Source: Candidatus Microgenomates bacterium (GTDB taxonomy: Bacteria; Patescibacteriota; Microgenomatia; UBA1400; UBA12108). Taken from it: a DNA stretch of 53,708 nt. The stretch is from the NCBI GenBank assembly GCA_003576945.1, contig QEVC01000004.1, positions 1 to 53,708 on the forward strand, read 5' to 3'. Positions 3,327 to 40,715 of the stretch are shown here, one piece after another. Position 1 is the first letter of the stretch. Each line of letters begins with the position of its first letter. The notes under the pieces are model-generated. The model was not told where the DNA came from. It searched no databases and saw only the letters and a list, made by a program, of their open reading frames with translations. Both the position numbers and the translations under genes were made by a program.

Positions 3327-4927
3327 AAATATCCTAGCGTTAAAACCGATAACAGTGAGACTGTATTACTTAGTAATTCAACTGGAGTACTACTCATTTT
3401 AATTTTGTAATTGTGAACGCCTAGCTCCGGCTTGAGCATAATCATACCATCCTCAGTTGGCTGAATCTCGATCTGCTTGGAATTATCTATTGTGACACGC
3501 CAGCCAGGATAATAATTACGAAGAATTGTGACCCTACCCTCACTACTATCAGGCTTATTGTTGATGGTAACATTAATTTTGAGCGGGTCATGGGAGAGTG
3601 CGTCGATCGTCATATTACCAGAATTAACGAGTAACTCGTCATTTTTGTAGCGTTCATGCGGGACACTCCATTTGGGCAATATTTCGGTGCGAAAAGTTGT
3701 ACTAGTTTTGTTGTAGTACAAACGATAGAGGTCTGTATACTCTTTGTTGTCGAGAAATTGTTGTGGGTTACGATAGTTACGAATATTGATGAAGGCTAGA
3801 ACCACAAAAAACAGCATGAGCAGGTAGCGGAATTTTTTTGATTGGAATGAGAGGAGTGCCTGACTCGCAAGTAGTGGAGTCAAGATAAGGGGCATGAAAA
3901 GAAACCGCCAAGGAAACTGGACGGATTGAAGAAGTGGCAAGCTATCCCAGATGAAATAACTCTTGGTGTGCATAAGAAAAATAGTGCCGAGGTAGGCTAG
4001 TATTAAATATAGATTGGAAAGCGTCGGAAATTTCCAAATAATTGCTAAAATTCCTAAGAGCGCCAGAGATAGCTGTGCTAACCCCAGCTGAAAGGACATC
4101 CCATCGTTGTCACCTGGCAAGGAATACCAGTAATCCCATTTACTATATAAAAGTTGCTTGAGGGCTATGAAATGTTGATCAAAGCGAAAAGTTAAATCCT
4201 TATATGCGAAAGAATAGAGTAAATTCTTTTGGGTGATCATCGGGATGATAAAGAACGCACCAATGCCAAATGAGATTAAGAGACTAGCGAGTGCGCGCTT
4301 GAGTGATGTTTTATTGGTTATCATGTATCCAAACATAAAGGCAGCAAAAAGAATACCTAGGAAGTTGTGAGCAAGTAAGACACCAGCGAGCGGGAGGGGG
4401 TGATACCACCTTAGTTTAGTATTATTTTTCTTTAAGTTCTGATAGCTATACAAGACCCATGGCATGAGACCAATGGCGAGAGTCTCACCAAGCGTACCAC
4501 GCACAAAAATGTTTAAAAATTGATAAGGAGTTAAGAGAAAGATGAGCGCGCCAAAAAGACCAAAGCTTCGCCCACGAGATGACAGTAGTAGATACATCCC
4601 GAGCCCTCCAAAAAGATAAGAGGCGATGGTAACTGCCTTGAGGGACCACATAGTGCCTATTACCACTGAAAGAAGGGAGCTTAGATAATAAGGTAGAGGG
4701 TAAACAAAGCTAAAGAGTGGGATACCAAAGCCTTGGTCAAAATTACCGGCCCAGCGGAGCGGGAAATGGCCGAGCTTGAGCATCGAAAGCGCCTCTTCGG
4801 TACGATAGATGTGAAAGATACCATCATGGGAGAGATACCAACCTGGTCTTAACAGGCTGGAGGCTAAAAATAAACCAACAACTAAGACAATAAGCTGGCA
4901 AGAATACTTTCTCAACCAAGTCTTCAT
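3278..4927 (-). CDS. PTPS-related/YfhO-like GT-C membrane protein
   Basis: HDGIFH, GFGIPLFSFVYPLPYY, VRGTLGE and QFPWRFL motifs. Start moved to ATG 4927. Confidence 0.75.
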   Translation of the reverse strand: MKTWLRKYSCQLIVLVVGLFLASSLLRPGWYLSHDGIFHIYRTEEALSMLKLGHFPLRWAGNFDQGFGIPLFSFVYPLPYYLSSLLSVVIGTMWSLKAVTIASYLFGGLGMYLLLSSRGRSFGLFGALIFLLTPYQFLNIFVRGTLGETLAIGLMPWVLYSYQNLKKNNTKLRWYHPLPLAGVLLAHNFLGILFAAFMFGYMITNKTSLKRALASLLISFGIGAFFIIPMITQKNLLYSFAYKDLTFRFDQHFIALKQLLYSKWDYWYSLPGDNDGMSFQLGLAQLSLALLGILAIIWKFPTLSNLYLILAYLGTIFLMHTKSYFIWDSLPLLQSVQFPWRFLFMPLILTPLLASQALLSFQSKKFRYLLMLFFVVLAFINIRNYRNPQQFLDNKEYTDLYRLYYNKTSTTFRTEILPKWSVPHERYKNDELLVNSGNMTIDALSHDPLKINVTINNKPDSSEGRVTILRNYYPGWRVTIDNSKQIEIQPTEDGMIMLKPELGVHNYKIKMSSTPVELLSNTVSLLSVLTLGYLWYTNKKNASSKAKSK

Positions 4928-5752: not shown

Positions 5753-7399
5753 TTACTTCCCTTCTGAAACGTGGAAGGCTGGGGTACCATCGGGAAAGTA
5801 AATACTTAAGGGGTGGGGGGTGCCCTCCCAGAAATCATCGCCCTTGCCGATAAAGACCATTTCGTTTTTGCCGTTATCAACGGACCAGTTGATATCGCGA
5901 AAGGTATACTTGCCGAGTGAATACTCAGGGAGCTGATCGAGCCAAGGATAACCACGAGATTCGTACTCGATCAATTTCTTATTTTCACTTTGGTACCAAG
6001 TGGGATCCCACTTGTTATAGAAAGCCAAGAACAACTGTGGTTCACCATAGGCTTTCGTCATGTAAACTCGTTTATATTTTGATTCGTTATCTTTAATCCA
6101 ACTGGCAATCTCCTTGTGTCCATACTGCCAGTCGCGGGCAAAAGCTCTGGGATACCAGACAAAATAGCTATGTAAGTAGATAATTACTTCGACAGTAAGG
6201 AGGAGATAGATCGGTTTTAGATATTTGTACTTTTTTGAGATCAAATCAACGAGCGCGACTGCGGCAATGACTTGCCACCAAGGCAGAGTAAGAATACTCC
6301 TTAAAACGTGGTAGATATCTTTGGTTAAGGCGGGTGGGATAAATCCAACTAAGACCAAGTAGATGGGGAGGTAACGGAGCGGGTGAGCTGATTTCTGGAG
6401 TAAGAATAATCCATAAACAAAGAGTGTAAATTCTACAAAATATAAAACACCACGAAAAGGGATGCTGTGCTGCGCCCTTATACTACTACTCCCTAGCAAG
6501 AAGTGGGGCGAGAGGTAGGAAGTCCAGTTAGAAAAACCCTTGGTGAGAATAAAAGTATATTTATTAAAGACTAACTTGTTGCCAAGATCACCAAAGGGTG
6601 CAGTATTGCGATACCGGAAAAAACGTTCGGTTAGCTCAGCATCTGTGGTAATACCAACCTGGTTATAACGCGCCTGGGTCTTGCCGGTTACAACATCACT
6701 CGCAATTGGATACGCAAAAAATGAAAGAATTAGCACAGGATAAATTAGCATTTTGGGAGTGAAGACTTTGCGATAAACCCAAGCCAAATAGAGCAAGAGT
6801 AGCGGAACTACGATCTTGGCACTGTGGTAGGTGTGAACGGATAAGCCGAACAATAGTACTGAGTAGAAAGTATAAAGTTGAAAGTTTTTGGACTTTTTAT
6901 CAAGAGCGATCAATAACAGATTAATTGCTGCCAAAATTAAAGCGAGAGCGACGCCTGCCTCGAACGCGGGCCGACTAAGCATGAGATGCCAAGGAGAAAC
7001 AGCAAGGAGGAGAGCGGCAAATAACCCCACCCGACGGCTATATAATCGTGTTCCTAGTGCGTAAGTTAAGTAAACAGTTAAGACCCCAAAGAGTGCGGCA
7101 GGCAAGCGAACACCCCAGGCGTTCAACCCAAAGACATTAATAAATGGAATCAGCAAGTAAATATAGACTGGAGATTTCCATTCACCGTAGGAGCGAAAGA
7201 GAATAGGCCAGGGCTCGCCCCATTCGTCTCGCCCAGTCTCTGAGAGTGAATAGGCGGTGTAACCCATGCTAATTTCGTCCCAATTGAGTTCAGGAGGGTT
7301 AGTGGAAAGGTTAAAGAGCCTAAGACTTGTTGCTAAGATAATCACACTGACGAGTGCGTGTGTTTTGATAAAACTACTTATTTTTGTGATTATTTCCAT
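5753..7399 (-). CDS. ArnT/PMT-like GT-C glycosyltransferase
   Basis: NWDE after TM1, RLPAALFG, SPWHLMLSR; multi-TM. Confidence 0.85.
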   Translation of the reverse strand: MEIITKISSFIKTHALVSVIILATSLRLFNLSTNPPELNWDEISMGYTAYSLSETGRDEWGEPWPILFRSYGEWKSPVYIYLLIPFINVFGLNAWGVRLPAALFGVLTVYLTYALGTRLYSRRVGLFAALLLAVSPWHLMLSRPAFEAGVALALILAAINLLLIALDKKSKNFQLYTFYSVLLFGLSVHTYHSAKIVVPLLLLYLAWVYRKVFTPKMLIYPVLILSFFAYPIASDVVTGKTQARYNQVGITTDAELTERFFRYRNTAPFGDLGNKLVFNKYTFILTKGFSNWTSYLSPHFLLGSSSIRAQHSIPFRGVLYFVEFTLFVYGLFLLQKSAHPLRYLPIYLVLVGFIPPALTKDIYHVLRSILTLPWWQVIAAVALVDLISKKYKYLKPIYLLLTVEVIIYLHSYFVWYPRAFARDWQYGHKEIASWIKDNESKYKRVYMTKAYGEPQLFLAFYNKWDPTWYQSENKKLIEYESRGYPWLDQLPEYSLGKYTFRDINWSVDNGKNEMVFIGKGDDFWEGTPHPLSIYFPDGTPAFHVSEGK

Positions 7400-32943: not shown

Positions 32944-34233
32944 CTACCTACCTACACCAATGTATTTAAAACCTGCATTTATAACTGTCTTTGGCTCATA
33001 TTGATTGCGAGTGTCAATAAACACTGGATTTGCTTTCATGAGTTTTGCGAGTCTTGAAAGGTCGAGATTGGTATAGTCGTCCCATTCAACTAGCAAGATA
33101 ATAATATCTGAGTTGGTAGCGGCCGCATAAGCATCTTTAGCATAGACAACTTCTTTGGGTAAAAGTGCTTTTGCCTCATCCACCGCCTGAGGATCAGTGG
33201 CACGAACTGTTGCCCCCTGACTTATTAGCCATGGGATTACAGCCAGGGATGGAGCGACGCGAGTGTCATTGGTATTCTTTTTGAAAGATAGTCCTAACAC
33301 AGCCACTGTTTTATTACTAAATGTTCCGGTCTCTTTTTTAAATTGTTCTAGTTTGCGGCTCACGCGTGCTTCATTGAGTGCATTAATCTTAATAAAGAGA
33401 CTATCTGGTTCGCCGACTTTTTTGGCATACGCCGCGATTTCTTTGACATCTTTAGGAAAACATGAACCACCATAACCGAGACCTGGATACCAATACCCTG
33501 GTCCAATACGACGATCCGCGCCAATTCCCTTAATCACCTCTTCGATGTCGGCACCATTATATTCACAGAGATCGGCGATCTGGTTAATGAAGGTAATACG
33601 GGTTGCTAAATAGTTGTTGGCAGCGTATTTGGTCATCTGAGCACTCTCGGGATTCATGACCAGGATGTTACTAGTTAGTGGCTCGTGCAACTTGGTTAAG
33701 ACTTCTTTAGAAAATTCGTCCTCTACTCCGATTACGACGCGGTCAGGATGGAGGGTATCCTCGACTGCTGTCCCCTCTTTAAGAAATTCGGGAACAGAGG
33801 CCAGATGGAAGACTTTTGTTGTTTTACTGCCAATCAAATCACGAATGTGCTTGTTGGTTCCAGGTGGGACGGTACTCTTAATTACGACAACCGCATTTTC
33901 TTTTAAGTGAGGGGCAATGCTCTCGGCAACACTCTCGACAAAGCGAAGATCAGCAGAGCCATCGGGAGCGCTAGGGGTGCCCACCATGATCATGACAACG
34001 TCAGAGTCGGGCACTGCGAGGTGGTAGTCGGTTGTAAAAGTAAGATTGCCACTCTTTTGAGTATTGATGAGGAGCTCAGATAGACCAGGTTCAAAAAAGG
34101 GTACGACTCCCTCTTTTAATTTGGCGATTTTGTCTTCGTCTATATCTAGGCCGATAACCTTGTTCCCTAGTTTGGCTAAGACTGCGGTCGTTACTACACC
34201 GACAAAACCAGTTCCAATACAGGTAATTTTCAT
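32944..34233 (-). CDS. ugd: UDP-glucose 6-dehydrogenase
   Basis: GTGFVG, VGTP, KSTVPPGT, PEFLKEG and GGSCFPKD motifs. Start moved to ATG 34233. Confidence 0.9.
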   Translation of the reverse strand: MKITCIGTGFVGVVTTAVLAKLGNKVIGLDIDEDKIAKLKEGVVPFFEPGLSELLINTQKSGNLTFTTDYHLAVPDSDVVMIMVGTPSAPDGSADLRFVESVAESIAPHLKENAVVVIKSTVPPGTNKHIRDLIGSKTTKVFHLASVPEFLKEGTAVEDTLHPDRVVIGVEDEFSKEVLTKLHEPLTSNILVMNPESAQMTKYAANNYLATRITFINQIADLCEYNGADIEEVIKGIGADRRIGPGYWYPGLGYGGSCFPKDVKEIAAYAKKVGEPDSLFIKINALNEARVSRKLEQFKKETGTFSNKTVAVLGLSFKKNTNDTRVAPSLAVIPWLISQGATVRATDPQAVDEAKALLPKEVVYAKDAYAAATNSDIIILLVEWDDYTNLDLSRLAKLMKANPVFIDTRNQYEPKTVINAGFKYIGVGR

Positions 34234-34341
34234 ACTCCGATTATGATAGCACCCGAGGCTGTTATTGGCTACGCTTGCCGAAAGCAAATTTCTGTTGATC
34301 CCTATATCGCCTAACGTATGGTGTGTATGCGAGGTTTTGCT

Positions 34342-34560
34342 TTAAATTTTGAGAAATTCCTCGACTGTCATCTCACATTGTCTGAGAATTGCGCGTAAGG
34401 CACCTTTCGGGATATCTCGGCTATGCAAAGCTACCGTAGACGCACGACCATCCGGATGAATAAGTCTAGCGTGACTACCAGTTTGCCGTGAAATCTTAAA
34501 TCCAGCTTTTTCTAACTTCTTGACTACTGCCAGTGGTTTGAGAACTGGGAGTTTGGGCAT
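34342..34560 (-). CDS. hicA: HicA-family toxin (mRNA interferase)
   Basis: LEKAGF..RQTGSH...H..DIPKGALRAILRQ; 72 aa. Confidence 0.9.
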   Translation of the reverse strand: MPKLPVLKPLAVVKKLEKAGFKISRQTGSHARLIHPDGRASTVALHSRDIPKGALRAILRQCEMTVEEFLKI

Positions 34561-34561
34561 A

Positions 34562-34849
34562 CTAAACGGCAAATCTGGTATAGGGAGTAACCTGGAAAGG
34601 TACCTGGGTATTAGTCACCAATTCTTCGTTAGGCTTATCAACGGGAATTTCTTTATGTTCTTTTTGCAAACACTCGACATGAAAGGCGATAGTGCTCTGG
34701 ATATTATCGAGTGCTTCTTGAGGGGTAGGCCCATCGTCGACCACACCTAGAGTGGGACAATATGCAACATAGCACGCTTTTTTGCTACCCAGGCTTTTAT
34801 CAAGGCGTAATATTACACGATAGTCGAGAACGGTCTTTTGTTGTTTCAT
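34562..34849 (-). CDS. hicB: HicB-family antitoxin (short form)
   Basis: YVAYCPTLGVVDDGPTPQEALDNIQSTI...EIP. Start moved to ATG 34849, behind extended -10 TGCTATACT. Confidence 0.85.
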   Translation of the reverse strand: MKQQKTVLDYRVILRLDKSLGSKKACYVAYCPTLGVVDDGPTPQEALDNIQSTIAFHVECLQKEHKEIPVDKPNEELVTNTQVPFQVTPYTRFAV

Positions 34850-35029
34850 AGTACTTGGAGTATAGCAAAAATCGGGAAAATATAAAGGCAAATTGTGGGC
34901 GAACGACTGCAAGGAGTGGAGCCGCATACACGCTAGTTAGGTGACCCGAGCGGAATGTGGCAAAATGCTCCCCTGCCACACGAAGTGAGAGTGCAACGGG
35001 GTGCGAGTGAAACGAGCAAGTTACAAACT

Positions 35030-35488
35030 TTACGATCTATTTATTAGCTCGGACAATGGCGGAACGCCATAGTCCTTTCGTTCTTGGTCTGATGTTTTGG
35101 GATCGTAGTCGCAGATTATTCCTGTGGCATTATTAAATTGGGTTCCGAATTTCTGTTTTTTACCTTGAGATACGAGCCACCTATCCAGACTGGCGGCATA
35201 CAACCACTTCGTTACGTTGGAACCCAATTTAATTGCCTTTTGAGCGTACTCATGCGCCAGTTTGTATGTGGCGGGAACATCAGACCATGAATGCATGAGC
35301 AATAAACAGGCATAATGACAATTCCATATTTCATTTTCATCTAGTGTTGGAAGAATTGTATTTAACACCTCTTGCCGATGAATATCGTTTTGTTTGAGTT
35401 GATCCTCGGATAATTTGCCTTCGTCAAATAGCTGACGATCACTTTTATCACTTAAATACAATTCTTCCAACTGTAAATGGATTGTCAT
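35030..35488 (-). CDS. Hypothetical helical protein (DUF6624-like C-terminal motif), cassette gene
   Basis: 152-aa ORF with LYAASLDRWLVSQGKKQKFGTQF...ERKDYGVPPL; family recalled, not verified. Confidence 0.6.
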   Translation of the reverse strand: MTIHLQLEELYLSDKSDRQLFDEGKLSEDQLKQNDIHRQEVLNTILPTLDENEIWNCHYACLLLMHSWSDVPATYKLAHEYAQKAIKLGSNVTKWLYAASLDRWLVSQGKKQKFGTQFNNATGIICDYDPKTSDQERKDYGVPPLSELINRS

Positions 35489-35510
35489 TATGAGTAAATT
35501 TTGTAATTAC

Positions 35511-35627
35511 GTCTAACGTATGGTGTGTATCTGATGTTTGGCGGACTTATAATGGATTATACTCACAAATCCGCCTGATATGGGAGAACGAGTGCAACGA
35601 AGTGAACCAGATACACGCTAGTTCTAC
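35511..35627 (-). repeat. attC-like site (117 bp, no gene in loop)
   Basis: GTCTAAC-gta-TGGTGTGTATCTG ... CAGATACACGCTA-GTTCTAC; inner GGCGGA/TCCGCC stem. Confidence 0.75.
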
Positions 35628-35722
35628 GACCCGAATGGAGCGAAGTATAATCTGAAAGCTCTTAATACTCCGCGGAATGAGAGTGCAACGCGATCGAGGA
35701 GCGTAGCGACGAAGACGTAATG

Positions 35723-35935
35723 CTACTCTGAGGAAGAACCTTCTTCATGCTCTAGCCAAGGGCCATCTACAATTATCTTGCGAAGGATCCTCATTTTATC
35801 TACGGAGAGTCTTTCTAACTGTTTCAGTTGAGATTTAAACTCCTCGTTAGTCGCTTCACCTTGGTATCTAACATAATCCTGAGCAAGTCTTCCCTCCTTG
35901 GCTAGAGACTCAGCTATGTCCATTAAGTTTGCCAT
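35723..35935 (-). CDS. Small hypothetical helical protein, cassette gene
   Basis: 70-aa ORF with upstream AAAGGAG; fills the space between two sites. Confidence 0.7.
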   Translation of the reverse strand: MANLMDIAESLAKEGRLAQDYVRYQGEATNEEFKSQLKQLERLSVDKMRILRKIIVDGPWLEHEEGSSSE

Positions 35936-35967
35936 ATTTCTTACTCCTTTCTGAGTAGCATTATGTC

Positions 35968-36409
35968 GCCTAACGTACAGCGTGTATGCGAGGTTATTAA
36001 GTTTTTGATACCTCCTCTAATATTTGCCTAAGTTTTCTAGATTCTTTCATGGCCTCCTCCACTTTTTCTTGAGTTATGGATTTGCTAAGCAGGATTGGAA
36101 TAATGCGAGACTGGTGAGCGATGAAACTATCGAGAGGCATAAGGGCACCGCCATGTTTTGACCAAGCCTCCTTTGCACCCTCCCAATTTTTGATTGAGGC
36201 ATCGATCACCAAAGTCTCTCGCAACTTCTTAAATTCATAATGCTTAGAAATCCATACCGTGATAATTGAGGCCATGAAACCTATGAGCGAACCTCCCAAT
36301 CCTGCGATTAATGTAGTAAGCTCTGGTGTCATGATGATAATTGTATCAAAAACTAAATAATCTGGGCGAACGACTGCAAGGAGTGGAGCCGCATACACGC
36401 TAGTTAGAT
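35968..36409 (-). repeat. Expanded attC-like site (442 bp) enclosing a 111-aa ORF
   Basis: GCCTAAC-gta-CAGCGTGTATGCG (35968-35990) pairs with CGCATACACGCTA-GTTAGAT (36390-36409). Confidence 0.7.
35997..36332 (-). CDS. Hypothetical protein with N-terminal TM helix
   Basis: MTPELTTLIAGLGGSLIGFMASIITVWI. Start moved to ATG 36332, 7 nt after extended -10 TGATACAAT. Confidence 0.7.
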   Translation of the reverse strand: MTPELTTLIAGLGGSLIGFMASIITVWISKHYEFKKLRETLVIDASIKNWEGAKEAWSKHGGALMPLDSFIAHQSRIIPILLSKSITQEKVEEAMKESRKLRQILEEVSKT

Positions 36410-36507
36410 GACCTGAGCGCGAGGTGATATGATCCCCCGATCACCTCGAGCGAGAGTGCAACGCGGTGCGGAGTGAAACGGAGCAAGTTAGCAACTCTCA
36501 CTAAAAA

Positions 36508-36852
36508 TTAGTTAATCTTTTCGAAGCCGTTGAAGTGAGGCTTATCGTCGTTGAATACTTCTATAACTTTATATCTTCCTTTTGTCCAGACCTCGCCAGC
36601 TTCTAGATAGTGAGTAGCGTCGAGGATGATAATACTAGCTTTGGGACGGGATAAAACTTGATTGCCTTGTGTCTCTAGGAGCGGAAGTTCGCCGTGCAAC
36701 CAATACAACCTCTGATCTTTTTTGAGAAAGGAATAGGTTTGGCCAACCTCTAACTTTTCGGGGATACATTCCTCTATTTTTCGGTTGCCGGCATGAAATT
36801 CCGCGACATTGCGTAAAGCGAGGTCTGGATTGTATTCAACGACGATACCCAT
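36508..36852 (-). CDS. Hypothetical protein, cassette gene
   Basis: 114-aa ORF; TATAAT just upstream; enclosed by a perfect 14-bp inverted repeat. Confidence 0.75.
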   Translation of the reverse strand: MGIVVEYNPDLALRNVAEFHAGNRKIEECIPEKLEVGQTYSFLKKDQRLYWLHGELPLLETQGNQVLSRPKASIIILDATHYLEAGEVWTKGRYKVIEVFNDDKPHFNGFEKIN

Positions 36853-36898
36853 ATATGTTGATTATAACCCTTCCTTGATTGTGAGAGTTGCTAATTTC

Positions 36899-37018
36899 AT
36901 CTAACGGGCACTGTATATCTGACGTTGGACGGGTTGATAATTGAGTTTATTGTACCCTAACCCGTCCAATGTGGGTCGAAGGAGTGCAACGACTGAGCCA
37001 GATATACAGTAGTTGTAC
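36899..37018 (-). repeat. attC-like site (120 bp, no gene in loop)
   Basis: ATCTAAC-ggg-CACTGTATATCTG ... CAGATATACAGTA-GTTGTAC; inner 14-bp stem at 36922-36935/36959-36972. Confidence 0.75.
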
Positions 37019-37248
37019 GACCCGAAGCCCACACGCTAAAATCACTCAACTTAAAGCGGGTGGGCTGAGAGTGCAACGAGGTCGAACGACTGCAAGGAGT
37101 GAGATGTCTATTTGTTCCTTAATTCAGTTCGCGCGCGCTTTTACATGTACCCTGTATTCATTTTCAGCTCAGTGTAGAGGGGTTAGGGGTGAATACACTG
37201 AGCTGAATGCTCCCCTAGTCTCCAACTCTGGTGGATATGTCCTATAAC

Positions 37249-37277
37249 TTGACAAAAAGCTATATATCTGGTATGCT
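37249..37277 (+). promoter_or_regulatory. Sigma70 promoter TTGACA-17-TATGCT with extended TG
   Basis: Consensus -35 and 17-bp spacer; both boxes are conserved in copy 2 while the spacer varies. Confidence 0.8.
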
Positions 37278-37284
37278 ACCAAAT

Positions 37285-37475
37285 GTTGTAGTAGTCTGCC
37301 ATGCTGCAAATAGATTGCTATTTCCCAGCGTGAATGAACCAACTATAACTGCACCTTAAAATGCGGAAGTTATCTCCTTTGCCAAGTGGGTAATTTTGTG
37401 GATATTGTCGTGTCTACAAAAATACCCATTTGGGTAGAAAAACGTTTTTCTATTCTGTTCTACAAAAGGAGATAT
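37285..37475 (+). ncRNA. Putative structured leader RNA, copy 1
   Basis: Nested stems GTTGTAGT/ACTATAAC, CATGCTG/CAGCGTG and AAATAG/CTATTT; long hairpin 37382-37433; anti-SD TATCTCCTTT. Confidence 0.55.
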
Positions 37476-37478
37476 ACC

Positions 37479-38063
37479 ATGTTCAAGAAAGCCCCCCGTA
37501 AGGAAGATGGATTGGATCTGTTTGCTCGCGCACTCGGAGCCAAATCCGGATCGGACGCCATTCTCAGACAAGAAGCTGACGGTCAACGCTCGTTCGTAGG
37601 TAGCGACACGCTCCCAACCGAAATGAGTGCTGATGATCGCACTGCTCTCGAAGCCGCAGGCGTTGTGTTCGGCGAAGTTGTGCCAGGCGATGACTTGTTC
37701 CAGTATGTTCAGCTCCCCGCTGGATGGACCAAGCGTAGCACGAGCCACTCGATGCACAATGACCTTCTCGATGAGAAAGGTCGCAAGCGTGCAGGCATTT
37801 TCTACAAAGCCGCGTTCTACGACCGCAACGCTCACCTCTACTGTGTGCGCCGCTTCGGCATCAACCTGGACTATGACCAGCTCGAGAATGGGATTGTGCT
37901 TGTGCAGGTGACTGACTGCGATGAAGTGGTTTACTCCACTAATCCTGTTCCGTTCGAAAAGAGCGAAGAGCGCCTTGCACGTGAACAGGCATTCGAAGTC
38001 GCCAAGTCCTGGCTGAACAGCAACTATCCCGAATGGGAAAACGCCGCCGCCTACTGGGACTAA
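37479..38063 (+). CDS. Hypothetical, probably phage-type protein (cargo 1, 194 aa)
   Basis: Strong SD AAAAGGAG. LPAGW...HSMH..LLDEKGRKRAGIFYKAAFYDR is recalled from phage hypothetical proteins (unverified). GC is higher than in the flanks. Confidence 0.75.
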   Translation: MFKKAPRKEDGLDLFARALGAKSGSDAILRQEADGQRSFVGSDTLPTEMSADDRTALEAAGVVFGEVVPGDDLFQYVQLPAGWTKRSTSHSMHNDLLDEKGRKRAGIFYKAAFYDRNAHLYCVRRFGINLDYDQLENGIVLVQVTDCDEVVYSTNPVPFEKSEERLAREQAFEVAKSWLNSNYPEWENAAAYWD

Positions 38064-38095
38064 TTCCTCACCTTCCGCAAGGTGCAAAACGCTCG

Positions 38096-38148
38096 ACCCC
38101 TCCGGTCACGTCCACGTAAGTGGAAAGATTGGAGGGGTGTTTTGTATC
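38096..38148 (+). terminator. Terminator-like hairpin, copy 1
   Basis: ACCCCTCC...GGAGGGGT followed by GTTTTGTAT. Confidence 0.55.
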
Positions 38149-38352
38149 TATTAACTTTCGCTATACAAAGTGGCAATTTTAGCGCTTTAATTAACAAAAG
38201 TCGCCGTAGGCGACACCTCATCCCCCTCTAAAAATAATATACCTTTACATGTACTCTGTATTCCATTTCAGCTCAGTGTAGAGGGGTTAGGGGTGAATAC
38301 ACTGAGCTGAATGCTACCCATACCATCACCTCTGGTGGATATGTCCTATAAC

Positions 38353-38381
38353 TTGACAAATGACTACATATCTGGTATGCT
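38353..38381 (+). promoter_or_regulatory. Sigma70 promoter TTGACA-17-TATGCT
   Basis: Same as 37249-37277, offset by 1104 bp. Confidence 0.8.
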
Positions 38382-38388
38382 ACGAGAT

Positions 38389-38570
38389 GTTGTAGTAGTC
38401 TGCCATGCTGCAAATAGTTTGCTATTTCCCAGCGTGAAAGAACCCACTATAACTGCACATTAAAATGCGGAAGTTATCTCCTTCTATTGTGGGTAGCACT
38501 TTTGGTATCAAAAGTGGTACTAAGTGTGCTACTCACAAGTAGTGAAACCCCAACCCACCCAAAAGGAGTA
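38389..38570 (+). ncRNA. Putative structured leader RNA, copy 2
   Basis: Same stems as copy 1; a hairpin of different sequence at the equivalent place (38487-38538); CTCCTT anti-SD. Confidence 0.55.
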
Positions 38571-38577
38571 CTGAAAA

Positions 38578-38886
38578 ATGAACGATAAAGTTATTACCCT
38601 CCCGAGCGCTGATGAAATGATTGCTCGCCTGATGAAAGTTCAGGATGATGAACTCGCCCAGTCACTGTACAGGAACGTTGCGCAGCGTGCTGGCGAGGAG
38701 AAGGTTGCGGCTGGCATCATTATGATGTTCAGTCTTGGCATCTACGATGTCTGCCAGGGATACCCTCCCATGATGCAGAACCTTCTCTCCTACAACATCC
38801 CCGCGTGGGTCGACGCCCTTGTTGATGACAAGGAAGTTGCCGATGCGGCTAAGGCTTTCTGGAAGGAAGCTACGAGCAAGAAATAA
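38578..38886 (+). CDS. Hypothetical protein (cargo 2, 102 aa)
   Basis: SD AAAAGGAG at 38561-38568; no similarity to cargo 1. Confidence 0.75.
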   Translation: MNDKVITLPSADEMIARLMKVQDDELAQSLYRNVAQRAGEEKVAAGIIMMFSLGIYDVCQGYPPMMQNLLSYNIPAWVDALVDDKEVADAAKAFWKEATSKK

Positions 38887-38984
38887 GTCTTCGCGAGGTC
38901 AAATATTGAAACCACTAGCTGGGCGACGTAAGTCGACGGGTTACTCCGTTATCAGTTATACTTCCGCAAAAGAAGTGCAGACAT

Positions 38985-39054
38985 CCCCTCCGAATAGTCG
39001 GAAATTGTTGCGTAAGTTGCAACGTTTTTGATTATAGGAGGGGTGTTTTGTATC
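38985..39054 (+). terminator. Terminator-like hairpin, copy 2
   Basis: CCCCTCC...GGAGGGG followed by TGTTTTGTATC. Confidence 0.55.
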
Positions 39055-39168
39055 ACTTTAGTTAATGAAAGTCGCCGTAGGCGACACCTCATCCCCCTCT
39101 AAAAATAATATACCTTTACATGTAATGTAAAAGCGCGCGCGAACATATAAATAGTACAAATAGATATC

Positions 39169-39207
39169 GTACAACTAGTGTGTATGCGAATAATGTTCGC
39201 ATACACA
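39169..39207 (-). other. attI-like recombination site
   Basis: Core GTTGTAC on - strand, next to a perfect 12-bp hairpin TGTGTATGCGAA-taatg-TTCGCATACACA, 21 bp upstream of the integrase start. Confidence 0.65.
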
Positions 39208-39228
39208 GACATTTGGTAGAATATTAGC

Positions 39229-40035
39229 ATGTGGAAAGAACGATTACAACTATATATGCAGGCTCGTGCATACAGCAGACGAACCATATCTGCGTATATT
39301 GATTCTGTCGATCGGATAGTCAAGAAAACGAGAAAAGATCCAGCTAATATAGATGAGCAAACGCTAGAAAAATACCTGAGCCAACTATACAGCTCTGGCA
39401 TGTCGCCCTATACCCTCAACCAGCACCACATGGCGTTAAAATTACTTAAGACTGCGGTACTTGGTCAGTCGTGGGACCCTAAGTTTGGCTATGCCAAAAG
39501 ACCAAAGAAAATCCCCGTTACACTAACTAAGAATGAGATCTCAAAATTAATAGATTCGACTGCTAATCCAAAACATCAGTTAATACTGGCTCTCGCATAT
39601 GGCGCAGGCCTACGGGTCAGCGAAATAATCGCCCTTAAAGTAATGGATATCGATTTTGAGAACATGCGGGTTGTAGTACGGAGTGGCAAAGGACAAAAAG
39701 ATCGAACGACAGTCCTCCCTGATAAGTTAGTCACCACTCTCAATTCGTATCTCGCAGGACGCAAAAAAGACGACCATGTCTTTTTGAGTGAGCGAGGTGG
39801 GACACTAACTACCAGGACGCTACAAGCGATATTTGCTAAATCGCTAAATCGTGCCGCGATTAATAAGGCCGCCACCTTTCACAGTCTCAGACACAGTTTT
39901 GCCACTCACCTCCTTGAGCAGGGTGTAGATATTAGGTATATCCAGACACTGCTCGGCCATGCTAGTATTACGACAACTCAGATTTATACTCATGTTGCGA
40001 GTACTGCACTACATAATATCAGGAGCCCATTATGA
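39229..40035 (+). CDS. IntI-like tyrosine recombinase (268 aa) lacking the integron-specific insert
   Basis: YGAGLRVSE (R), GKGQKDR (K), HSLRHSFATHLLE (HxxR), LLGH, TTQIYTHV (Y); C-terminal RSPL as in IntI. Confidence 0.9.
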   Translation: MWKERLQLYMQARAYSRRTISAYIDSVDRIVKKTRKDPANIDEQTLEKYLSQLYSSGMSPYTLNQHHMALKLLKTAVLGQSWDPKFGYAKRPKKIPVTLTKNEISKLIDSTANPKHQLILALAYGAGLRVSEIIALKVMDIDFENMRVVVRSGKGQKDRTTVLPDKLVTTLNSYLAGRKKDDHVFLSERGGTLTTRTLQAIFAKSLNRAAINKAATFHSLRHSFATHLLEQGVDIRYIQTLLGHASITTTQIYTHVASTALHNIRSPL

Positions 40036-40715
40036 GGATCGACATTATTACCCTTTTTCCAGAATTTTTTGATGGCCTAAAAAAACACAGCATTGTGGGT
40101 CGCGCGATTGATAATGAGAAAGTTGAGCTACACACACACAACTTACGTGAGTGGGCGGTAGATAGCTATGGAACAGTAGATGATCACCCCTATGGTGGTG
40201 GGCCAGGAATGGTTTTGAAAGTAGATGTCATGCATGCGGCAATAAAAGCAGTAAAAGAGAAAGTTAAAGATTTTGATGGGAAAGTCATCCTGCTTACACC
40301 ACAAGGCAAAGTCTATAAACAAAAAAAGGCACTAGAGCTGGCGAAAGAAAAAAATATAATCTTGATTTGTGGACACTACGAAGGATTTGACGAGCGGATC
40401 AGAGAGTACGTGGACTTAGAAATATCGGTTGGAGATTATGTACTGACAGGTGGGGAAATCCCTGCGATGATCCTAGTTGATTCAGTATCGAGATTATTAC
40501 CAGGAGTACTTGGAGATGATGCTAGTAGCCATGATGAATCACATAGTGAAGGACTATTAGAATACCCACAATATACGAGGCCAGCCAAATATGATAATAA
40601 GGGAGTGCCAGAAATACTATTATCTGGCGATCATCCAAAAATTGATGCCTGGAGAAAAGAGCAAGCGATAATTAAAACTCAAAAAAGAAGGCCAGACTTA
40701 CTTAAAACGAAGTGA
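40032..40715 (+). CDS. trmD: tRNA (guanine37-N1)-methyltransferase
   Basis: VDDHPYGGGPGMVL, CGHYEGFDER, GDYVLTGGE and LLEYPQYTRP motifs. Confidence 0.97.
   Translation: MRIDIITLFPEFFDGLKKHSIVGRAIDNEKVELHTHNLREWAVDSYGTVDDHPYGGGPGMVLKVDVMHAAIKAVKEKVKDFDGKVILLTPQGKVYKQKKALELAKEKNIILICGHYEGFDERIREYVDLEISVGDYVLTGGEIPAMILVDSVSRLLPGVLGDDASSHDESHSEGLLEYPQYTRPAKYDNKGVPEILLSGDHPKIDAWRKEQAIIKTQKRRPDLLKTK

Follow-up and report, generated by a model that had tools for sequence, protein, structure and literature searches.

Genes within two attC-like sites of an integron-like cassette array in a Microgenomates genome

The attC sites of integrons are treated as short non-coding hairpins, also by the programs that search for them. 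How genes could come to lie inside sites of this type is a question raised by a stretch of 53,708 nucleotides (nt) from Candidatus Microgenomates bacterium (GenBank assembly GCA_003576945.1, contig QEVC01000004.1, positions 1 to 53,708 of the forward strand; hereafter the window), whose source genome (G000) comprises 825 kb in 33 contigs and is 98% complete. Within the window, an array of about 5 kb, made of small genes and repeats, is bounded by the UDP-glucose dehydrogenase gene ugd (32944-34287, minus strand) and by the gene for a tyrosine recombinase, 3' of which lies trmD. The array contains four attC-like sites, A1 to A4 (Table 1), and two of them, A1 and A3, keep the conserved elements yet enclose genes of 0.4-0.6 kb. 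The explanation that we prefer, and to which we give an even chance of being right, is that A1 and A3 are rare secondary gene acquisitions at the hairpin tip of integron-like sites, carried along by the cassette.

Anatomy of the compact and gene-bearing sites

Each A site opens with a left arm that reads yyTAAC, 5-7 nt and GTGTATGCG or a variant of it, and closes with a right half in which a 26-nt module comes first, then a stretch complementary to the left L element, next GCTA or AGTA, and finally GTTrrry; in A2 and A4 a short stem-loop lies between the two halves. The module core GARNGANTGCAANG occurs six times in the window against 0.07 copies expected, and 0/100 shuffles reached six. The first-pass annotation had described four sites, two of them compact and two enclosing genes between the same arms and the same 26-nt module, and their positions and sizes proved correct. 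Its statement that the right 45 nt of the two long sites are identical was borne out by direct comparison of 34896-34940 with 36363-36407 (45/45 nt), the following base being G in A1 and A in A3. In their 28-nt left arms A1 and A3 share 25 of 28 bases. Absent from that earlier description is a conserved module of about 90 nt, which we call B and which lies 3' of every A site; B and A together form a composite of about 210 nt in each cassette.

Both inserts begin directly after GCGAGGTT and stop directly before the TGGG of the module, so that the terminal hairpin (about 40 nt) is replaced precisely. The A1 insert holds hicA, which matches the Pfam family HicA_toxin with an E-value (E) of 3.8e-18, and a hicB candidate which overlaps hicA by 11 nt and has homologues beside hicA in two other genomes (G010 and G021); its match to HicB_lk_antitox (E 0.021) is below the cut-off. 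The A3 insert holds an open reading frame (ORF) of 111 amino acids (aa) with an N-terminal hydrophobic stretch, for which no Pfam or NCBIfam family was found. The inverted repeat of the A3 insert matches at 18/20 positions without gaps, while 2000 random pairs gave at most 14. That of the A1 insert matches at 13/20 positions without gaps, which is not above chance, and its stem forms in the minimum free energy (MFE) fold.

The long sites were folded as single-stranded DNA (ssDNA), a check that had been proposed, and in both the MFE and the centroid structures of A1 and A3 (z = -2.0 and -5.2) the inner stem is paired, as are the L box and the R box; thermodynamically, and in-cell kinetics aside, the long sites do fold. 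The compact site A4 folded with z = -5.1 and -4.1 on the two strands, and A2 alone was weak (z = -1.2 and -0.9). No sequence decay was seen in the arms, module and spacer of A1 and A3, which keep the columns that are invariant in the family. No single extrahelical bases are visible in the L box, and one strand of the site has a bulge of 26-28 nt instead; in other variants the 26-nt module resembles a small separate hairpin, as judged by eye in the alignment and uncounted. The gap from L box to L box is 72-80 nt in all other sites, against 589 nt in A1 and 397 nt in A3. The variable terminal structure (VTS) of integron attC sites is given as 20-100 nt in PMC4889954, a range within which the compact sites fall and A1 (589 nt) and A3 (397 nt), holding ORFs, do not.

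Identical right halves bring up the alternative that the long sites arose in the assembly by mis-joining at repeated arms. We compared the array with contigs from four public sequence runs (X17, X18, X19 and X20) with likeness set to 90; uncovered parts and the low share of X20 are uninformative. No contig in the four runs crosses the 45-nt repeat, from hicB through to B1, so that the linkage of the inserts to their B modules comes from the original assembly alone. Nevertheless, the stretch from ugd to 34925, which takes in the A1 left arm, hicBA and part of the module, is covered without a break by contigs of X17, X18 and X19. Around A3, contigs of X17 and X19 link the 70-aa cassette, the left arm and the ORF to the module, as far as 36388-36392. 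With arm, gene and module thus joined in independent contigs, an artefact appears hardly credible to us.

Folding and proposed strand exchange across the family

The family-wide comparison was based on an alignment of 67 distinct compact sites of 115-129 nt, taken from 21 family loci and 17 metagenome contigs and analysed by RNAalifold and by a count of pairs, with 500 shuffles and slid-partner controls. Across these sites 92.6% of cells are paired, rising to 97.2% in the L-box helix and 99.1% in the inner stem, and 18 of 27 pairs have changed on both sides. None of the 500 shuffles reached the observed values, and the slid-partner controls showed pairing of only 20-47%. Because the sequence of the inner stem varies freely yet stays paired, the comparison points to selection for intrastrand folding, rather than for a sequence bound by protein. 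AAC and GTT are invariant (67/67 sites), and the sites have the attC-type architecture R''-spacer-L''...L'-spacer-R' with AAC/GTT and a paired L box. The four outer positions of the R box are unpaired within the site in 19-39% of sequences.

Those outer positions follow a different rule, which concerns neighbouring sites. On average, the outer seven bases of R' agree with the R'' of the site that follows at 5.2/7 positions, with at least six matches in 35/55 pairs, against a mean of 3.99/7 and at least six matches in 10/67 for the R'' of the same site, and 3.97 for all sites against all. Such agreement between neighbouring sites marks integron cassettes, whose crossover lies in the R box, as far as sequence comparison goes. 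In the window this rule holds from A3 to A4 and from A4 to the attI-like site. Together, the covariation in the 67 compact sites and the R-box rule agree with the first-pass suggestion that the sites are attC-like and folded. The pattern of right arm and B start was found in 16/23 other genomes of the family, and a longer site pattern in 7/23 family genomes and in 0/37 genomes of other families in the order.

In the comparison of B modules, ten pairs go with the site on their left against two that go the opposite way, and 14 pairs differ on both sides. Since B goes with the left site and the boundary at the attI-like site falls at AA|C in both G000 and G004, a genome of the same genus, the comparison suggests that a cassette, read on the minus strand from the recombinase side, consists of cargo, B and A site. 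The attI-like site itself, just upstream of the recombinase gene, contains a perfect 11-7-11 palindrome of the L element which is also present in G004, where, as in G000, the conserved part starts at the C of AAC. The layout of ugd, array, recombinase gene and trmD is likewise kept in G004, with different cassettes.

The recombinase scores 225.7 against the NCBIfam model 'XerA / integron integrase' (cut-off 220) and only 215 bits, in two stretches, against the integron integrase model TIGR02249 (cut-off 265). Because residues 187-244 of IntI4 (2a3v) have no counterpart in the alignment and XerA (4a8e) aligns end to end, the 268-aa enzyme lacks the IntI-specific insert. In integron integrases this insert carries the I2 helix, which PMC7790495 describes as the route to single-strand recombination. 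The genome has two further XerC/D-like genes, so that the array-linked recombinase is an extra paralogue. Close homologues of it (E <= 1e-70) were found in 16/23 family genomes; gene and sites occur together in 14/23, neither in five, only the sites in two and only the gene in two, which is to be taken as a pattern and not as a test, as the relatives are not independent. In eight family genomes the recombinase gene lies within about 1.5 kb of the sites on the same contig. Homologues of the array-linked recombinase with 45-47% identity were also seen in three other families of the order (G024, G044 and G049). A housekeeping Xer/dif reading of the palindrome was rejected on account of the two other XerC/D-like genes and of the restriction of the array-linked gene to this family and a few others; GC skew showed no switch at the palindrome.

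An enzyme of this kind would also suit an account without any hairpin chemistry, in which the arms are double-stranded core sites forming a chain of inversely oriented sites with modules in both phases, like that of the Xer-dependent plasmid dif (pdif) modules of Acinetobacter. A mini-module of about 75 bp would then be the usual occupant of one phase, and hicBA and the 111-aa ORF would be ordinary modules in its place. Toxin-antitoxin pairs are frequent cargo of pdif modules. Such an account is consistent with an Xer-like recombinase without the IntI insert, with the complementary proximal arms on each kind of segment (L around the loop, R around the cargo), with the perfect 11-7-11 palindrome of L arms in the attI-like site, and with the reassortment of both R ends against the same interior in 56/92 pairs of sites. 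However, across the aligned sites the left spacer measures 5-8 nt and the right one 4 nt (GCTA or AGTA), and their sequences are not alike, so that the two arms cannot be equivalent double-stranded core sites, and the inner stems vary freely while remaining 99.1% paired. Recombination between inverted sites would moreover flip segments, whereas none of the 67 sites has its 26-nt module on the opposite side and a single orientation is kept at each locus, with no unit inverted. Finally, B stays with the adjacent site. We consider a chain of double-stranded sites very unlikely.

Origin and state of the gene-bearing loops

Genes in the loop position are rare. None was found in the 67 distinct compact sites, nor in the 18 metagenome copies (on 17 contigs) of the exact 28-nt module common to A1 and A3, all of which are compact, although in two of the 18 copies the contig stops short of the left arm. 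Gene-bearing sites that have both arms are limited to A1 and A3, in one genome and with identical right halves. A comparison of filled and empty alleles had been suggested earlier, and compact counterparts exist: L078, one of the metagenome copies, has 42 nt of the A1 left flank at 95%, together with the module and R' GTTAGGT, and is the nearest to an empty A1, and G001 has a compact site with an A3-type module and a B3-like B. No such alleles could be traced through the cargo, for the hicBA homologues of G010 and G021 lie outside arrays and the 111-aa ORF has no homologue in 23 family genomes. Of eight cassette ORFs only hicA and hicB had a match in the loci compared. The inner-stem sequence of A1 or A3 was not present in any compact site of these loci, and a pre-existing long AT-rich inner stem was rejected on this ground.

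Under the explanation that we prefer, the region would be the distal part of an integron-like cassette array with a recombinase and an attI-like site, in which each cassette consists of a gene with its own promoter and its own closing inverted repeat, and then the B and A composite. The A site would be an attC-like hairpin with R box, unpaired spacer, L box and a short terminal hairpin with the bulged 26-nt module, and the R box would be the place of strand exchange. A gene module predicted to be expressed would have taken the place of the terminal hairpin in A1 and A3, encoding HicBA or a membrane-type protein of 111 aa. The inserts could be tolerated since R box, spacer, L box and module are untouched, and for the same reason the sites may still work, the loop genes travelling as passengers of the cassette that owns the site. 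Long loops would make folding from double-stranded or replicating DNA much rarer, which would tend to fix the cassette. In classical integrons, according to PMC8946536, recombination of attC sites with a long VTS falls by up to four logs under replicative conditions, and only a short VTS allows cruciform extrusion. Because a long VTS lowers recombination and stops extrusion in those systems, the cassettes here are probably held in place, and the loop inserts probably slow cassette folding. hicBA would add addiction, that is, post-segregational pressure against loss. Recombination by the 268-aa enzyme, the position of the crossover, the route of gene entry and the effect on mobility are all parts that we infer from sequence.

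Several observations weigh against this explanation. The R-box rule fails from A1 to A2 (3/7) and from A2 to A3 (4/7), that is, for both cassettes between A1 and A3, so that this part of the array has been rearranged; a reconstruction of its history from the R boxes, in which the left end of A3 fits the right end of A1 at 6/7 positions, gave no unique scenario. When sites that share their interior are paired, 56/92 pairs differ at both R ends, and exchange is therefore not confined to one crossover point. Hairpin recombination would also have to be ascribed to an enzyme without the I2-bearing insert. Furthermore, the A3 repeat (18/20) sits exactly inside the arms, and a random insertion should not bring inverted repeats. 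The loop genes resemble ordinary cargo, with a promoter of their own and a closing inverted repeat, which fits regular loading. No target duplication is visible at either insert, and the hairpin is replaced, not interrupted, unlike in a site of another locus that is broken by an element resembling a miniature inverted-repeat transposable element (MITE; see below). Lastly, two gene-bearing sites with undecayed arms in a single four-site array are much for a rare accident.

Some of these points would be expected if the loop were a true second cargo position, as the first-pass annotation proposed, with modules bounded by inverted repeats that are gained and lost as units while the long sites still fold and recombine. 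The cargo design of the loop genes and the intact arms of A1 and A3, paired in silico, would both follow. The compact inner hairpin behaves like an optional unit, with about eight sequence types beside the same module and none in one site, and in three other genomes a minus-strand gene starts right behind the site loop or the inner-right stem. Moreover, one contig each of X19 and X18 joins 35995 to 36359, skipping exactly 363 nt (the ORF and its inverted repeat), and continues into B1; in X20 a compact hairpin precedes 36359. This joint is a hint only, seen in contigs, as its short sides are 21 and 27 letters, the letters between them are not known, and repeats or other organisms often cause such joints. 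In a stronger form the tip would be a reversible cargo position served by a recombinase without the I2 insert, the 363-nt unit being one such event, and its occupation would tune folding; this we hold to be doubtful.

That part of the proposal which says that one cassette carries a gene both before (152 or 114 aa) and within its site is supported by what we see in the window. As a general slot the loop finds no support in the 0/67 compact sites and 0/18 same-module copies with a gene. In addition, the terminal repeat pair of A3 occurs once in the genome, the 111-aa ORF has no homologue in the 23 family genomes, and the homologues of hicBA lie outside arrays. Because gene-bearing loops are rare and B stays with its adjacent site, which fits one crossover per site and gives no second crossover signal, a regular second slot is disfavoured, and we regard it as unlikely.

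The opposite possibility is that the long sites are dead, their hairpins being too split to form in the cell, their arms intact because the events are recent, and the adjacent cassettes fixed. The losses of up to four logs and the block to cruciform extrusion described in PMC8946536 would favour this, as would an L-box gap of 397 or 589 nt against 72-80 nt elsewhere. Truncation is frequent in the sites furthest from the recombinase (G001, G004 and G023), and A1 itself ends the series of sites, with only a truncated remnant of a cassette between it and ugd. Against it stand the undecayed arms, module and spacer, the thermodynamic fold in which the arms remain paired, and the position of A3, internal to the array. 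PMC8946536 further states that VTS length matters little in classical systems when the DNA arrives single-stranded. We therefore judge dead sites to be quite unlikely, and return to secondary acquisition as the preferred explanation.

Two sources of inserted DNA were considered and rejected. Against a MITE or transposon origin, neither insert shows a clear duplication, and no second copy of the A3 repeat pair was found in the genome. Occupancy by a group IIC-attC intron or an IS1111-attC insertion sequence was set aside, as there was no reverse transcriptase or DEDD transposase among the Pfam and NCBIfam matches of the enclosed ORFs and no Rfam match in 33500-40500.

Irregular sites do occur elsewhere in the family. 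In L081 (minus strand, 4395-4820), equal to L086 1-330, the inner stem of a site is interrupted by a non-coding, MITE-like element of about 290 nt; its terminal inverted repeats are 14 nt long (GGATCATGCGCAAA), and the 7 nt AAATCCG are duplicated. Three sites (L081 minus strand, about 4420; G016; G018) have a small palindrome rich in G and C (CCTGCCTGCGCAGGCAGG or a variant of it) inserted at differing points, which may be a tiny mobile repeat. One site is without any inner hairpin. Four right-half sites abut genes and have no left arm: three at the far end of arrays, in G001, G004 and G023, and one at a contig end, in G018. From their sequences, the irregular sites point to the hairpin tip as a fragile place, a hot spot.

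A1 and A3 show that the terminal loop can tolerate cargo, and they offer a natural test of loop length against folding and cassette mobility; a toxin-antitoxin pair inside a site could pin an array. Beyond this, covariation of the attC type and R-box boundaries of the integron type stand here beside a recombinase without the I2-bearing insert, in a family with genomes of about 0.8 Mb. If the 268-aa enzyme acts on hairpins, this would bear directly on the origin of integron integrases from Xer-type enzymes. Were the second-slot proposal true, the recombination site of a single cassette could itself house a further gene or an addiction module, which would tune how readily the site folds.

Array layout and known systems

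The features of the array are listed in Table 1. The cassette genes of 152, 70 and 114 aa and the loop genes all lie on the minus strand. Cassette genes have apparent promoters of their own, and the 70-aa and 114-aa ORFs are closed by their own inverted repeats of 17-18 nt. A search of Rfam with positions 33500-40500, on both strands and at E <= 1, gave no match, and the A and B modules are therefore not a described RNA family.

Table 1 Features of the cassette array in the window.
Feature	Position	Strand	Size	Remarks
A1 long site	34309-34942		634 nt	encloses hicA and hicB
A1 left arm	34309..34336	+		R'' GCCTAAC, unpaired spacer, L'' GTGTATGCG
A1 loop insert	34337..34895	-		hicA 34342-34572; hicB 34562-34852 or from 34927; inner stem about 34337-34352 with 34880-34896
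Promoter-like site before hicB	34886..34859			from promoter scan
A1 right half	34896..34942	+		26-nt module, L' CGCATACAC, GCTA, R' GTTAGGT
B1 module	34943..35030	+		GACCCGA, hairpin, GAGAGTGCAACG...
152-aa cassette ORF	35030..35488	-	152 aa	between B1 and A2; weak DUF6624 match
A2 compact site	35511..35627	+	117 nt	
B2 module	35630..35720	+		
70-aa cassette ORF	35723..35935	-	70 aa	18-nt inverted repeat either side, 35714-35731 with 35950-35967
A3 long site	35968-36409		442 nt	encloses 111-aa ORF
A3 left arm	35968..35995	+		
A3 loop insert	35996..36362	-		111-aa ORF 35997-36332; inverted repeat 35991-36011 with 36343-36363
A3 right half	36363..36409	+		first 45 nt as in A1 right half
B3 module	36410..36496	+		fold z = -3.6
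114-aa cassette ORF	36508..36852	-	114 aa	17-nt inverted repeat either side, 36485-36501 with 36881-36897
A4 compact site	36899..37018	+	120 nt	fold z = -5.1
B4 module	37020..37101	+		
First cassette, by attI-like site	37103..39168	+		44-nt inverted repeat at ends; two tandem units, each a 240-nt leader and a plus-strand ORF (225 aa, 102 aa)
attI-like site	39167..39210	+		GTACAAC, TAG, palindrome TGTGTATGCGA-7-TCGCATACACA (39178-39206); z = -4.4
Tyrosine recombinase	39229..40035	+	268 aa	Xer/IntI-like, without IntI insert

The two units of the first cassette have leaders that are 91% identical, with a hairpin and a TTGACA-17-TATGCT promoter, and a conserved terminator tail, while the ORF is variable. 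In G004 (L016, 6010-6550 and 9050-10320) leader and tail are kept around different ORFs. Public contigs were also seen in which one unit is skipped (37182 to 38288) or in which the second ORF is swapped for 439 other letters (38539 to 38985). Further into the array, contigs of X19 and X18 skip 669 nt, 36426-37096 (the remainder of B3, then the 114-aa cassette and A4, and the greater part of B4), the letters between the sides not being known; array content thus differs between samples.

At the recombinase-distal end, G000 retains a 32-nt remnant of a cassette start (34277-34308) that is homologous to L078. In G001, G004 and G023 this end of the array is a right half-site adjoining, beside ugd, a conserved gene for a NUDIX-like protein of about 177 aa (L017 minus strand, 6050-6700; L016, 3809-4780; L018, 6883-7800), a gene which is missing in G000.

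A hexamer resembling a -10 element stands 7-10 nt before the ATG, without a Shine-Dalgarno sequence, in several cassette and loop genes (36853-36870, 34859-34864 and 36336-36341), which suggests leaderless or near-leaderless messages for these genes. The loops of compact sites and of B hairpins open with TAnAAT on the plus strand (in the window at 35540-35575 and 36930-36965), with AAT invariant in 67/67 sites, and most loops that begin in this way also read TATAAT on the minus strand. In G004 and G018 a minus-strand ORF begins 15-25 nt behind the TATAAT hexamer of a loop. The hexamer may be part of a promoter or of a protein-binding loop. A scan for the sigma-70 consensus flagged none of the -10-like hexamers in compact loops, and a loop promoter in compact sites is thus an unproven candidate.

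We compared the array with four known systems. The A1 cargo resembles a type II HicAB module in its HicA_toxin match and in the upstream gene that overlaps hicA by 11 nt and has counterparts beside hicA in G010 and G021, and differs from it in that the putative HicB match is below the cut-off (E 0.021).

IS1111-attC insertion sequences occupy attC sites. Group IIC-attC introns likewise place protein-coding DNA within an attC site whose ends remain, according to PMC3001079, and A1 and A3 have this much in common with sites interrupted by such elements. In contrast, the inserts described here have no reverse transcriptase or transposase matches and no target duplication, they replace the loop where the others cut the stem, and they are single-copy.

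Xer dif and pdif modules, together with integrative mobile elements exploiting Xer (IMEX), share with this locus an Xer-like enzyme, inverted recombinase-binding arms around gene modules and toxin-antitoxin cargo. The array differs from them in its unequal spacers, its folding covariation, its fixed orientation and the presence of two separate XerC/D-like genes for housekeeping.

A literature search of a limited set of full texts found no description of such arrays in genomes of Patescibacteria, Saccharibacteria or the Candidate Phyla Radiation (CPR), and in the same set, papers on ORFs within the variable terminal structure all dealt with classical sites. The closest likeness is to the sedentary chromosomal integrons, with their IntI, attI and homogeneous attC sites such as the Vibrio cholerae repeats (VCRs). 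As in these, the array begins at an attI-like site and the recombinase gene points away from the array, the sites are repeated (here 115-129 nt) and follow the order R''-spacer-L''...L'-spacer-R' with invariant AAC/GTT, and the outer R bases are complementary across each cassette. The array likewise includes a toxin-antitoxin pair, and its content differs between close relatives at one locus (G000 and G004). Unlike the sedentary integrons, this system has a recombinase without the IntI-specific insert, a bulged 26-nt module in place of single extrahelical bases, and an extra module B; its cassette genes have apparent promoters of their own and closing inverted repeats, its host has a genome of about 0.8 Mb, and two of its sites hold genes in the terminal loop.

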